The notes under the pieces: generated by a model
The model's input: only the letters and a program-made list of their open reading frames with translations
Told to the model about the DNA's origin: nothing
Databases searched by the model: none
Shown: positions 44,564-47,935 of the stretch, one piece after another
How the letters are laid out: every line of letters starts with the position of its first letter
How positions within the stretch are numbered: position 1 is the first letter of the stretch
From: a virus
Taxonomy: Duplodnaviria; Caudoviricetes
Virus record (IMG/VR): IMGVR_UViG_3300012971_000005
Span: 1-54,684 of that record
Length of the DNA: 54,684 nucleotides
Reading direction: 5' to 3' (one strand)
Made by a program: the position numbers and the translations under genes

Positions 44564-47500
44564 TCAGTGTCCCATCCAGGCCGTCGATTGCATCCCGAAG
44601 CGCCCCAGCAGCATTGGCGGAGGCGTGGGCGGCTCTGGCGTCTCCTGCAACCGAAATTCATCCTCGATCCCCGCCACGACGTCCAGGCTATTGGCCAGCG
44701 TGCGTAGGGCGTCGGCGCCATGCGAAGAGTTATGCACAAGCGCCCCATTCGCCAAGGAAAACTCTTCAAGCCCTGGCACGGTAAGACACCACGTATCTTC
44801 AGGCTTTGACACGCCCTGAACGGCGGCGATAGTGAGCGGCTTTACAACTTTGCGTACAAAATTTCTGACTGTTGCTCTTACGGCGTATAAGGGCGAGAAA
44901 AGGCTTTGTACAAAAGAGACACAAGCGTGTCTCCCGATTTTGTCTATTCCATTGCTGACCGAGCTTGGCATGGCGGCTATGCCAGAGGCGTCCGGCTTCC
45001 GAGCGATGCCATTCCGCGGCTTTTTGTCGCGCCAGGTCAACAAAATGTGGACCAGGATTGACGCCTTTTGTCCGATGCCATTGCTCTGAAAGGTGTTCTG
45101 ATCCATCAAGACACTCAAGATTGGAAAGGGCATTATTTGCGGCGTTGCTATCTCTGTGGTGAATATGGCATCCAACTGGGATAGGCCCAAAAGCCCTTTG
45201 CCATACTGCCCTATGAAGCCTTTTCCCAGCCCTCGCAAGATATCGCTCATTTGGCCACATACGGTAGAGACCACCATCAAAATACTGCGTAAGGGGGTCA
45301 AGGACGATTGGATCACTGTACCCGGCAAGAGGGACCCGGCGGATGTCCACCCGCTGTCCGTCTTGAATAAATGTTCCGGCGTACATCTCACCGTAAACCC
45401 GTCGCTGAACACAACTGCCACAAGTGGGGCATTTCTCCGCGTGATTCTCGGATTCTGGTATGCTTTCCAGCCACATGATGTTAAGACCTCCCCTGTTATA
45501 GGAAGGTCCATTATCTGATACGTTCCGTAACGTGTCAAGACCAAAGTATCACCAGTCAGACACCAGTCGTGCTCGGGATGCGCCGCAAAGGTCTTCTTCA
45601 CCTCATCCCACTCGTGCTTGTAATCCCTGAGCGCGTTAATCCCTAAGGTACAGCCATCCTCGTCAAACAGGAGTCGCGGGAAGAGTGTCCGCACGTTATC
45701 AATCCCAGTAGCCAGGCTGGTCCGTTGCACCGAGCGCACGACCCCTTGCACGAGGCGCTGCAAGACCTCTTCCCGGCGTTCCCCTGTGCCCCACTCCCGG
45801 TTATGGCCATCATGCGGCAACAGATGCGCCCGGTAGTTGCCCTGGTACGGCAGAGCACTGAGATACTGGCCGTAATGCATCGCCCCGTAGCCGTGATTTT
45901 CGTAGTAGTGGATACAACACACCTGGCGCCCAATGAACTGCACACACCAGATGGACGTGTAATCGTCAATCCCTAAGTCCCAGAACGTATACACGGGATA
46001 GGTGGGGTCGTAGGGACAGCGCGTAATACGCCGCTCCTGGTCCACCTGGCGAAACTCATGGGCGTAGTAGGCCCCAGGGATGGCCGCTTCCCAGCTCAGG
46101 TAATACTCCTGGTCAATCAGCTCCTGGCTCATGCCCTCACGGCGATCCGCCTCGATATCGGCCTTACTAATCACGGGCTTGCCATCCTCGCCCTGACCAT
46201 CACGCTGCGTCTGCTCGACGCTGAGCACCTCGACGTACCAGTCAGGATTGTTCACGTTGGTCCGGTACAGTTCATACCCGTGGTTTTTGCCCCTAGGCGT
46301 ATAGGCAAAAGCGGCCCATCCGCCATTCTCCCGCAGAATAGGCCGGGCAATGTTCCAGCCAGCCGGATTCTGGAGGGCGTACTCCGAGAAGATCATGCCG
46401 ACGCCGTTGCCGCCCACGAGCACATCGAGGTTGCGGTCCGTGCCGAGAATCTGATACGTACTGCCGGGCTTCCGGGCGTCAGCAGGGTCTACCAGGACAA
46501 TCTGCATATCGGCTTTATTGGGCTCCTGATAGAGCAAGTCGGGCGGAAAATGATCGAGGTAGCGCTTCCCTTCACGGTCTATGCCGTCCCAAATGACGCG
46601 CCGGCCCTGATTTAATTTGGGGAAAATGTGGTAATAGTTGCCGACACGATCAAGCATTTGCTCAATGAGGAAATTGAGGATGGTTTTGTCTTTGCCGCTA
46701 TTATGGACTACATAACCATTTGCTAAAAAACTCTGATACCGTTGCGTTTCAAGGTCCCACGTTTCATGCAACCCTGCATCTTTCAACGTTACCCCAGCCG
46801 CATAAATGCCGTAATCTAAGACACGTGGAACAGCCTGGGGCATAGCTAAAATAGCTTCAACCCGCTCCATTTTCTCAGGATGCACCAACGACAACCCATG
46901 ACACAAGCGCTGCACTGCGTCCATGGCCCAGATACGCAACGTCCAGCAACTTTCACGTTCATACTTGATCGAGCCAACCCGAATACCCCATTTACGCAAA
47001 AGCCAATAATAATCCCACGCTAAGCCCTCACTTTCCCCAGCATGGATCTTAATTTCCGCATGCGCCTTAAGGGGTTTTATCCCCCACATGGTAGCCGGGA
47101 AAAGATAAAAACTCCCATCACAATCAAGCACACCGCTTAAAAATGCCCAGACCGCTGCAGCATTACTCTCCCATAAAAAACGCGGCATGCGCCGCGTCTC
47201 ATGTACGCCTAACGCCTCTTGCTGCGCAAAAAACGCTTTGATGGGATTAGGAGTATTTCCACCCCCCCGCGTGCCATTGGGCAAGCCAAGATCATAGCCA
47301 TTACCCTTAGGACGCCATTGGACCTGTACAGCAAAAACTTCTTGGGCTAAACGTTCTACACGCTTCAACAAGGCAAGCTCAGTATTGGTAAACTTCGGGC
47401 TTTGCACAGGAGATACCGAACCGTCAGCCATTAAGTAACCACACAACATAGCCAAACAAACATCGTCGCGCCAGCCAGACGCATGCCCACCATACACCGT

Positions 47501-47935
47501 AACGGTATCTAGAGAACCAGTAGGGCCTTTAGGGACAATAGCGCCAATAGGAAGAAAAAGACGACGTGAAGAGCCATTCCCATGCCGAATAAGAAAACGA
47601 TGGTCAGGAGTGCATATCACGGCAGGAAAACCAGCAGCCACCACATGGGAGCAGGGTTTGAGGCCCGCCATCCAGACATCACGCACGGTATCTTCGACAT
47701 AACCGCCCTGATGCCACGTCAAGAGACGATCCCCTGGTATCACCGTTTCAATAGGTTTCCAGGACCCATCTGCCATAGTGACATGGGTACCACGAGCTAA
47801 ACAGCGCCGATGCCACACGAGGATAAAGCGGCGAATCCCGCTGTCCCAGGCATCCCACAGGCGCCACTGATAGGAACGCGGCTCAAACAGATAGGGCAGG
47901 TCCAGGAGAATTTCGGTGGGTGTCTCAGTGCGCAC
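44564..47935 (-). CDS. terL: Terminase large subunit containing two inteins
   Basis: PRSYQ, VWHRR|SGKD (Walker A), IFSEYA, YTPRGKNH, FWDLG..D.T, HPEHDW|SSHGADALR. Confidence 0.95.
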   Translation of the reverse strand: MRTETPTEILLDLPYLFEPRSYQWRLWDAWDSGIRRFILVWHRRCLARGTHVTMADGSWKPIETVIPGDRLLTWHQGGYVEDTVRDVWMAGLKPCSHVVAAGFPAVICTPDHRFLIRHGNGSSRRLFLPIGAIVPKGPTGSLDTVTVYGGHASGWRDDVCLAMLCGYLMADGSVSPVQSPKFTNTELALLKRVERLAQEVFAVQVQWRPKGNGYDLGLPNGTRGGGNTPNPIKAFFAQQEALGVHETRRMPRFLWESNAAAVWAFLSGVLDCDGSFYLFPATMWGIKPLKAHAEIKIHAGESEGLAWDYYWLLRKWGIRVGSIKYERESCWTLRIWAMDAVQRLCHGLSLVHPEKMERVEAILAMPQAVPRVLDYGIYAAGVTLKDAGLHETWDLETQRYQSFLANGYVVHNSGKDKTILNFLIEQMLDRVGNYYHIFPKLNQGRRVIWDGIDREGKRYLDHFPPDLLYQEPNKADMQIVLVDPADARKPGSTYQILGTDRNLDVLVGGNGVGMIFSEYALQNPAGWNIARPILRENGGWAAFAYTPRGKNHGYELYRTNVNNPDWYVEVLSVEQTQRDGQGEDGKPVISKADIEADRREGMSQELIDQEYYLSWEAAIPGAYYAHEFRQVDQERRITRCPYDPTYPVYTFWDLGIDDYTSIWCVQFIGRQVCCIHYYENHGYGAMHYGQYLSALPYQGNYRAHLLPHDGHNREWGTGERREEVLQRLVQGVVRSVQRTSLATGIDNVRTLFPRLLFDEDGCTLGINALRDYKHEWDEVKKTFAAHPEHDWCLTGDTLVLTRYGTYQIMDLPITGEVLTSCGWKAYQNPRITRRNAPLVAVVFSDGFTVRCTPEHLFKTDSGWTSAGSLLPGTVIQSSLTPLRSILMVVSTVCGQMSDILRGLGKGFIGQYGKGLLGLSQLDAIFTTEIATPQIMPFPILSVLMDQNTFQSNGIGQKASILVHILLTWRDKKPRNGIARKPDASGIAAMPSSVSNGIDKIGRHACVSFVQSLFSPLYAVRATVRNFVRKVVKPLTIAAVQGVSKPEDTWCLTVPGLEEFSLANGALVHNSSHGADALRTLANSLDVVAGIEDEFRLQETPEPPTPPPMLLGRFGMQSTAWMGH
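44799..45476 (-). CDS. HNH homing endonuclease nested out of frame inside intein 2
   Basis: LHRAVWQRAFGPIPVGCHIHHRDSNAANNALSNLECL; C-terminal CLFCTKPF...KFCTQSCK; GGAGG at 45491-45487. Confidence 0.88.
   Translation of the reverse strand: MWLESIPESENHAEKCPTCGSCVQRRVYGEMYAGTFIQDGQRVDIRRVPLAGYSDPIVLDPLTQYFDGGLYRMWPNERYLARAGKRLHRAVWQRAFGPIPVGCHIHHRDSNAANNALSNLECLDGSEHLSEQWHRTKGVNPGPHFVDLARQKAAEWHRSEAGRLWHSRHAKLGQQWNRQNRETRLCLFCTKPFLALIRRKSNSQKFCTQSCKAAHYRRRSGRVKA
45487..45538 (-). promoter_or_regulatory. sigma70-type promoter and RBS for the nested HNH, embedded in intein coding sequence
   Basis: TTGACA (45538-45533), 17-nt spacer, GATAAT (45515-45510); AGGGGAGG ending 10 nt before ATG 45476. 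Confidence 0.7.
46700..47803 (-). mobile_element. Intein 1 (368 aa) in the TerL Walker A motif, with in-frame LAGLIDADG endonuclease
   Basis: CLARGTHV...CTPDHRF...LCGYLMADGS...FLSGVLDCDGS...ANGYVVHN|S; lower GC. Confidence 0.93.

Follow-up and report, generated by a model that had tools for sequence, protein, structure and literature searches.

The stretch analysed here, in the following called the window, is a soil virus genome of 54,684 bp (IMG/VR record IMGVR_UViG_3300012971_000005; Duplodnaviria, Caudoviricetes) which is complete with direct terminal repeats. Its gene for the large terminase subunit (terL) encodes two inteins. Based on comparative sequence analysis the second one likely combines functional splicing lobes with an HNH homing nuclease that lies in the -1 frame and is initiated independently. 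The element would thus be a composite selfish element within a phage terminase gene. A sequence-only reading had proposed a 225 amino acids (aa) long open reading frame (ORF) in the -1 frame that is contained entirely in the intein and overlaps block B, and all its coordinates proved correct (Table 1).

An IMG/VR scan with the HNH ORF as query yielded 70 loci with 34-63% identity. The HNH frame is open in 70/70 loci (161-344 aa), the terL frame runs open straight across it in 70/70 (232-933 aa), and no locus has an open third frame (2-128 aa). For the alignments, loci cut by contig ends (L062, L064) and those of 35-43% identity (L066-L071) were excluded. The remaining 62 loci plus the window gave 53 distinct sequences, to which the counts below refer unless indicated otherwise. 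Residue alignments of intein and HNH protein contain the window and 46 of the 52 other distinct sequences; near-duplicates (L018, L027, L028, L050) and members with non-ATG starts (L042, L055) were omitted. Across the HNH ORF the terL frame has no stop in 53/53 members, while the third frame has 14.2 on average. Upon synonymous permutation of the HNH codons the terL frame stayed open in a median of 7% of the trials (range 0.05-57%; window 14%). Moreover, 217 relatives are present in a large protein collection, of which the best 120 are 54-67% identical, reside mostly on contigs of ~1 kb and all carry PF13392. The same nesting in the -1 frame is present in the annotated terL of four cultured phages, namely Tetrasphaera phage TJE1, Acinetobacter phage Highwayman, Rhodobacteraceae phage LS06-2018-MD07 and C. 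difficile phage phiCDHM19. All four show HNH_3 in the -1 frame (E 5e-12 to 5e-14) as well as Hint/Intein_splicing matches in the terL frame, and all four are annotated with terL alone over the nested gene. Standard annotation hence misses it, as the sequence-only reading had predicted.

The same frame arrangement would result if two compensating assembly or sequencing indels had thrown an ordinary in-frame HNH intein out of frame, and HNH_3 inteins of the in-frame kind do exist, e.g. in the dCTP deaminase of cyanophage CL131 (PMC6293099). However, the frame relation is identical in 70/70 independent contigs and in the four cultured genomes. Logan contigs from two other studies (X2, X4) match the window at 44846-45389 and 45423-45900 with 0 differences and 0 indels, whereby this cover is partial and only X1, possibly the source sample, spans the whole stretch. 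The HNH C-terminus also overlaps the first ~15 codons of the C-terminal splicing lobe. Searching longer proteins for an in-frame fusion of intein and HNH returned a single match among 745 candidates (P0121), which is a frameshifted copy; this is weak evidence for the absence of such fusions. We rejected the artefact as next to impossible. P0121 itself (407 aa, JGI) follows the HNH frame up to about residue 165 and then another frame, and looks like a decaying member of the family.

Intein 2 is inserted in the nuclease motif of TerL (HDW/SSHGADA, the slash marking the insertion point). It exhibits C1, T61-x-x-H64, D256, H277-N278 and a Ser at position +1, i.e. all hallmarks of a class-1 intein (C1, TxxH in block B, Asp in block F, the His-Asn end and the +1 residue). 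C1, T61, H64, D256 and N278 are invariant in 47 intein sequences and H277 is kept in at least 90%; the +1 residue is Cys in 38/53, Ser in 14/53 and Thr in 1/53 members. The splicing blocks taken as intact from the sequence alone are therefore indeed present and invariant or nearly so. Pfam Intein_splicing matches residues 834-1069 of the terL frame with 33.9 bits, slightly below the cut-off of 35.8, and a Pfam scan of the intein middle in this frame returned no domain. An AlphaFold2 model of the intein frame built from 47 sequences has pLDDT values (predicted local distance difference test) of 87-98 for residues 1-90 and of 93-98 for residues 241-278, but only 31-51 for residues 91-239. Using Foldseek, this model retrieved 33 solved structures at E ≤ 1e-3 with mini-inteins on top (best E=2.8e-6), among them gp41-1, MchDnaB-1, Msm DnaB and Npu DnaE, which identifies a HINT fold. 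The spliced TerL is predicted to comprise ~478 aa, compared to 477-486 aa in intein-free relatives. Purifying selection on both lobes, together with terL being essential, leads us to infer that intein 2 is spliced.

Table 1. Positions of the terL precursor, its inteins and the nested HNH gene with its putative expression signals in the window.
Feature	Position	Strand	Remarks
terL precursor ORF, 1123 aa, two inteins	47935..44564	minus	ORF call
Intein 1, 368 aa, terL residues 45-412	47803..46700	minus	P-loop site VWHRR/SGKDKT
Intein 2, class 1, 278 aa, terL residues 792-1069	45562..44729	minus	reads C1...TPEH...VHN/S
Intein 2 N-terminal splicing lobe, residues 1-88	45562..45299	minus	AlphaFold2 pLDDT 87-98
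Promoter-like TTGACA-17-GATAAT	45538..45510	minus	11/12 positions; best such site in 5 kb scanned
Predicted hairpin/palindrome H1 in promoter spacer	45536..45517	minus	RNA folding
Predicted hairpin H2, GGACCUUCCU pairing with Shine-Dalgarno-containing GGGGAGGUCU	45509..45484	minus	begins right after -10 hexamer
Shine-Dalgarno GGAGG	45491..45487	minus	spelled by intein codons Gly-Glu-Val; 10 nt ahead of ATG
HNH start codon ATG	45476..45474	minus	A is wobble base of intein codon before Cys30
HNH endonuclease ORF, 225 aa + stop	45476..44799	minus, -1 frame relative to terL	wholly within intein 2
N-terminal CxxC of HNH frame, C16 and C19	45431..45420	minus	each in at least 90% of sequences
Intein 2 filler, residues 91-239	45292..44846	minus	no predicted fold, no own amino-acid constraint, stop-free
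HNH_3 (PF13392) catalytic core, ORF residues 86-128	45221..45093	minus	Pfam E=2.2e-13, 50 bits (cut-off 24.8)
C-terminal Cys4 zinc ribbon, C186, C189, C207, C211	44921..44844	minus	all invariant in family alignment
Intein 2 C-terminal splicing lobe, residues 241-278	44842..44729	minus	pLDDT 93-98; third-codon-position variation dominant

To see which frame is under selection, diversity was determined per codon position across the 53 distinct sequences. Exteins and C-terminal splicing lobe show a high diversity at the third terL position (0.60-0.68) and hence are under ordinary coding selection in the terL frame. In contrast, the second terL position, which is the wobble position of the HNH frame, is the most variable one in intein residues 85-244 (about 0.52-0.73; the other two 0.09-0.62). 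Because variation peaks at the HNH wobble, the intein middle evolves as an HNH gene with the intein frame needing only to stay open. This agrees with the sequence-only reading, which had taken the middle as filler and had named stops in the HNH frame of homologues combined with a conserved intein-frame middle as a refuting observation. All three positions are low (0.12-0.26) in intein residues 45-74, corresponding to HNH codons ~16-45. By this measure, both frames are under constraint over ~30 codons around block B. HNH codons 1-15 are governed chiefly by the intein frame. The invariant residues of splicing blocks, HNH core and zinc ribbon fit both proteins being functional.

The nested ORF overlaps intein residues 30-88 and has HNH_3 as its sole Pfam match at E ≤ 0.1. 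H104, H106, H107, D109 and N119 are invariant in the family alignment, and N114, N115 and H128 occur in at least 90% of the sequences; the roles of the individual catalytic residues we take to be those of I-HmuI. Both the HNH motif and the C-terminal zinc ribbon had been noticed from the sequence alone, and Pfam and the four invariant Cys bear them out. Relatives of the HNH ORF include some with zinc ribbon Pfam matches or a YacG-like name. In two members (L039, L041; intein of 346 aa) the ORF is lengthened to 302-344 aa, with an apparent second C-terminal CxxC...CxxxC ribbon. The N-terminal CxxC falls into the doubly constrained segment, from which the intein residues immediately ahead of block B are likewise encoded. 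AlphaFold2 predicted the HNH frame with a mean pLDDT of 83.5, low for residues 1-20 and high from about residue 31 onward. A second Met at residue 31 (about 45384-45386) is kept in at least 90% of the members.

The intein codon whose wobble base provides the A of the HNH start varies between seven amino acids across members (P, S, L, Q, V, R, I). Nevertheless its last base is A in 51/53 and G in 2/53, while adjacent wobble sites are mixed. The start codon is ATG in 50/53, GTG in 2/53 and ATA in 1/53 members. Upstream, GAGG is located at -14 to -11, and its Glu codon is GAG in 47/53 members compared to 62% in the extein background. Most of the nine distant members examined also have a Shine-Dalgarno (SD)-like motif ahead of the first start codon, such as GGAGG in L066, L067 and L076 and AAAGGAG in phiCDHM19. 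Taken together, the comparison supports a separate translation of the HNH protein, as had been proposed. A programmed -1 frameshift, producing a fusion of TerL N-extein, intein N lobe and HNH, would likewise account for a nuclease that sits in the -1 frame in 70/70 metagenomic loci and 4/4 cultured terL genes. However, a slippery heptamer (X_XXY_YYZ) in the right frame and place was found in 3/53 members only, at three different positions, and in 24/53 the -1 frame is open for just 4-7 codons ahead of the ATG. In addition, the ATG is kept at a site which is synonymous for the intein, and most of the distant members carry an SD-like motif ahead of the start. Frameshifting was thus rejected based on the heptamer count and the short upstream opening; we rate it as very unlikely.

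The distribution of the element points to mobility. A search with the middle extein gave 14 related loci, and intein 2 is absent in 14/14; the 12/12 terL relatives showing the P-loop site lack intein 1 as well. In 4 of the 14 intein-free loci TerL is 95-96% identical, with L078 being about 82-86% identical on DNA level. The complete 54,145-bp genome holding L078 gave no HNH match. In the soil run X4, a contig joins 44710 to 45563 with 18 replaced letters and thereby represents an intein-free allele (depth 18.4), alongside intein-containing contigs (depth 2.4-2.7). Residence in a self-splicing element and a patchy distribution among close relatives, both characteristic of homing genes, are hence found here. 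The intein-free allele HDW/ASHGSDA of L078 and run X4 is the candidate target of the nuclease. Compared to this allele, the 18 nt just past the intein (44711-44728) differ at many positions, including +1 Ala to Ser, while the 45 nt ahead of the intein contain one difference. The divergence of 44711-44728 may represent a co-conversion tract or a target-site change. For the 48 of 53 members with an N-extein of at least 200 aa, the median pairwise identity is 0.58 for HNH versus 0.36 for the N-extein, and HNH exceeds the N-extein by more than 0.15 in 825/1128 pairs, which could however partly reflect the dual-coding constraint instead of transfer. The reverse pattern occurs in 10 pairs (terL up to 84% identical, HNH only 54%).

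Within the intein-HNH family (L002-L065 and window 44711-45580) four insertion points fall into one 5-residue spacer of the motif H-D-W-x5-D-A. Insertion is after spacer residue 0 in 22, 1 in 4, 3 in 15 and 4 in 10 of the 53 members, with two irregular cases, and the spacer always has five residues. This looks like sliding of the insertion site.

The HNH protein might instead be a domesticated packaging helper of the terminase. HK97 gp74 is an HNH protein of this type. HNH proteins aiding terminases are also mentioned in the discussion of PMC11855218, and free-standing relatives with 31-42% identity follow directly after terL in Pseudomonas phage PAE1 and Brevundimonas phage Poludnitsa. Against this, no HNH match was obtained in a complete genome with a 96% identical TerL, intein-plus and intein-minus alleles occur together in one run, and the distribution over divergent terL genes is sporadic. 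Moreover, the ORF is tied to the intein, for which a helper gene would have no need. We hence consider a helper improbable, slightly less so than frameshifting, and favour a homing nuclease. The match of the free-standing relatives to HNH begins near residue 45-55, and their position after terL fits an origin of the nested HNH from a free-standing gene. The PAE1 gene is annotated as HNH endonuclease; the Poludnitsa relative (L072, 2501-3019, 32% identity) is unannotated and fills the gap between terL and portal gene.

Further signals were predicted upstream of the start. TTGACA-17-GATAAT and GGAGG within the N-terminal intein codons had already been noticed in the sequence-only reading and are confirmed here. 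Eight successive wobble sites (-60 to -36) are conserved by means of codons that the exteins of these loci rarely use, while the neighbouring wobble sites are saturated. These include CGT (Arg) in 48/53 members versus 13% in the extein background, GGA (Gly) in 46/53 versus 11%, ATA (Ile) in 41/53 versus 10% and TTG (Leu) in 41/53 versus 15%. TTGACN and GATAAT, with 17 nt between them, mark the two ends of the conserved block. Its spacer is conserved as well and holds a small palindrome (CGTT-ACGG-AACG). In 38/53 members the -35 hexamer has at most one and the -10 hexamer at most two mismatches; 15/53 exceed this. The predicted fold comprising H1 and H2 has a z-score of -2.6. As H2 starts right after the -10 hexamer, a transcript starting ~7 nt after the latter would leave the SD free.

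Based on these data, we propose the following mechanism. In the intein frame, a class-1 HINT splicing domain would be composed of an N lobe of ~88 aa and a C lobe of ~38 aa. Both would be joined by a linker of ~150 aa with no fold or sequence constraint of its own, kept stop-free to allow translation of TerL across it and subsequent splicing. Read in the -1 frame, the DNA of the linker plus ~55 N-lobe codons including block B would encode a homing endonuclease with HNH_3 core and zinc ribbon. This nuclease would arise by independent initiation at the conserved ATG behind GAGG, neither by release upon splicing nor by frameshifting. With less certainty, a sigma-70-type promoter in the N-terminal intein codons may give rise to a short transcript. 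It would begin within the 5' arm of the SD-pairing hairpin, ~7 nt past the -10 hexamer, such that most of the arm is absent and the SD is free. This short transcript might then serve as the main template for the nuclease, with little translation of it from the long terL mRNA, which would uncouple it from late terL expression. Finally, the nuclease would cut intein-free terL near the HDW-x5-DA nuclease motif, and repair would copy the element in. A similar logic is known from I-TevI, I-TevII, I-TevIII and segB of T4 and mobE of Aeh1, where a hairpin masks the site of ribosome binding on long transcripts (PMC2988022). A promoter yields a transcript devoid of the 5' arm in these genes, leaving the ribosome binding site free, and an operator may overlap the promoter. 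In contrast, the T4 cases use late promoters in introns or intergenic DNA, whereas the putative promoter here is sigma-70-like and lies in codons of the splicing domain. For the promoter and hairpin part of our reading we see even chances.

A number of points, apart from the one on HNH identity raised above, weigh against our interpretation. The 10-nt distance between SD and ATG is longer than the optimum. HNH residues 1-20 are modelled with low confidence and the conserved Met31 sits where the confident fold begins; judged by the model, the true start could lie later, e.g. at Met31. Comparing the HNH model with the PDB by Foldseek gave nothing at E ≤ 1e-3, with I-HmuI (1u3e) on top at E=0.11 and a template modelling score of 0.23-0.29. 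A profile search of PDB sequences with HNH likewise reached I-HmuI only at E=0.74; the top match of this protein among PDB sequences, Plasmodium EXP2 (E=0.02), was taken as chance. Across 51 sequences 80% of the cells of the two hairpins pair compared to 31-52% in slid controls, whereby the structure was derived from the window's own sequence and is thus favoured in this control. Covariation is modest, with pair 45-56 unpaired in 40/51 and pair 13-28 in 22/51 sequences. None of the sequencing runs listed as holding the window sequence is an RNA run. Conservation of the spacer is unusual for a plain promoter, and the 29-nt element may have another role.

The latter leads to the possibility that there is no internal promoter at all and the late terL mRNA is the sole template for HNH, with internal initiation at the ATG. 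Positions 45510-45538 would then have another function, e.g. as a structured RNA, as a site bound by the nuclease or by a regulator, or as a site of mRNA processing. Several observations agree with this. The spacer equals the hexamers in conservation, something not required of a plain promoter, the element can form a hairpin or palindrome, and 15/53 members have more than one mismatch in the -35 or more than two in the -10 hexamer, with the hexamers below 9/12 in a minority. I-TevI moreover binds an operator that overlaps its own promoter (PMC2988022). On the other hand, the limits of the conserved block coincide precisely with the outer edges of TTGACN and GATAAT at 17-nt spacing, and the 5 kb scanned contain no better sigma-70-like site. 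In addition, the SD-pairing hairpin directly follows the -10 hexamer as in known nuclease genes with hairpin and promoter. We regard translation from terL mRNA alone as the less probable, yet by no means negligible, explanation and prefer an internal promoter.

An out-of-frame nuclease inside an intein is already in print. The sequence-only reading had cautioned that such genes might be known from phage insertion elements, and rightly so. A 2025 preprint (Gosselin, Arsenault, Gogarten, 10.1101/2025.01.02.630785) describes actinophage inteins with the nuclease in a frame separate from that of the intein, comprising LAGLIDADG and VSR-like types in antisense and an endonuclease VII-like (IPR004211) type on the same strand in 'frame 3'. 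The authors' reading is that a free-standing nuclease gene invaded the intein. Just as in our case, a same-strand -1 ('frame 3') ORF occupies the nuclease-insertion region of a continuous intein, terL is among the host genes and the middle of the intein frame lacks recognisable structure. Unlike here, their same-strand type is endonuclease VII-like with HNH being listed in frame only, and the secondary ORF lies outside the splicing domain. Their text contains neither 'promoter' nor 'ribosom', whereas comparative evidence for start signals is given here. Individual inteins are itemised in the supplements, and cases like TJE1 may be among them.

In mycobacteriophage ShiLan a hidden out-of-frame HNH was reported in an insertion of a DNA methylase gene (Arsenault et al. 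2025, PMC11855218). It resembles our element by being located in an insertion that is open in the host frame and by its patchy, homing-like distribution. In contrast to the complete intein described here, the ShiLan insertion has no splicing domain and stays in the protein. Furthermore it has a GTG start with no detectable ribosome binding site, for which leaderless initiation was proposed, instead of ATG and SD. Beyond these two works of the Gogarten laboratory we found no description of an out-of-frame HNH in an intein. The word 'intein' was not found in the part of the matching literature covered on phiCD119, phiCDHM19 and TJE1, and PMC5418858 likewise offered nothing on the subject.

In fractured genes, a free-standing nuclease gene is located between the halves of a split intein (Dassa et al. 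2009, PMC2677866). As in our element, phage genes (including a terminase) contain an intein whose nuclease-insertion point is occupied by a nuclease gene, and a hairpin upstream of the nuclease start was found in 15/16 of them, often with a promoter element. Unlike these, which have two ORFs and splice in trans, the terL frame is continuous in 70/70 loci. By analogy, the nested HNH intein could be an unbroken alternative outcome in the invasion model of Dassa et al. The CL131 intein, for which splicing was shown, also combines a HINT domain with an HNH_3 nuclease in a phage gene (PMC6293099), but there the nuclease is in frame and released within the excised intein. What sets our element apart is the HNH_3 core with zinc ribbon, the deep overlap of the ORF with the splicing domain including block B, and a frame relation conserved across many uncultured and several cultured phages. 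To this adds the comparative evidence for a start codon, an SD, a promoter-like block and a hairpin apparently written into intein codons.

As a joint reading we tentatively suggest, with somewhat less than even confidence, that intein and -1 frame HNH form one old mobile unit. Phages of Actinobacteria, Proteobacteria and Firmicutes would have acquired it in their terL nuclease motif as it spread, with the frame relation always kept, as the unbroken counterpart of a fractured gene. In the family of the window, about 90 nt would be read four ways, namely as N splicing lobe, as promoter with a possible operator, as hairpin which hides the ribosome binding site when present on terL mRNA but leaves it free on the transcript of the nuclease itself, and as N-terminus of the nuclease (CxxC). 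The unit might thereby be a living intermediate between free-standing nuclease genes, such as Orf3 of PAE1, which directly follows terL, and in-frame intein nucleases.

Standard gene calling overlooks an entire nuclease gene in many phage genomes, cultured ones included, and inteins apparently lacking a nuclease may be mobile. The element supports the view that inteins gain nucleases by invasion of free-standing genes and shows that the out-of-frame state can be stable over deep divergence, beyond a brief step. It also represents a clean natural case of overlapping genes in which one frame is for the most part merely open, ~30 codons are doubly constrained and expression signals apparently reside in codons. 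The family, with 53 distinct members and 217 database proteins, is large enough for quantitative study. With this element, a connection between the regulation of homing nucleases and an essential late gene can be tested.

Some further elements of the region were noted. Intein 1 is canonical with an in-frame LAGLIDADG_3 Pfam match and provides context for the intein described here. On the opposite strand within the HNH ORF, a promoter-like site (44806-44833, plus strand, 10/12 positions) and a terminator-like hairpin (44916-44933, plus strand) were predicted, both probably by chance.

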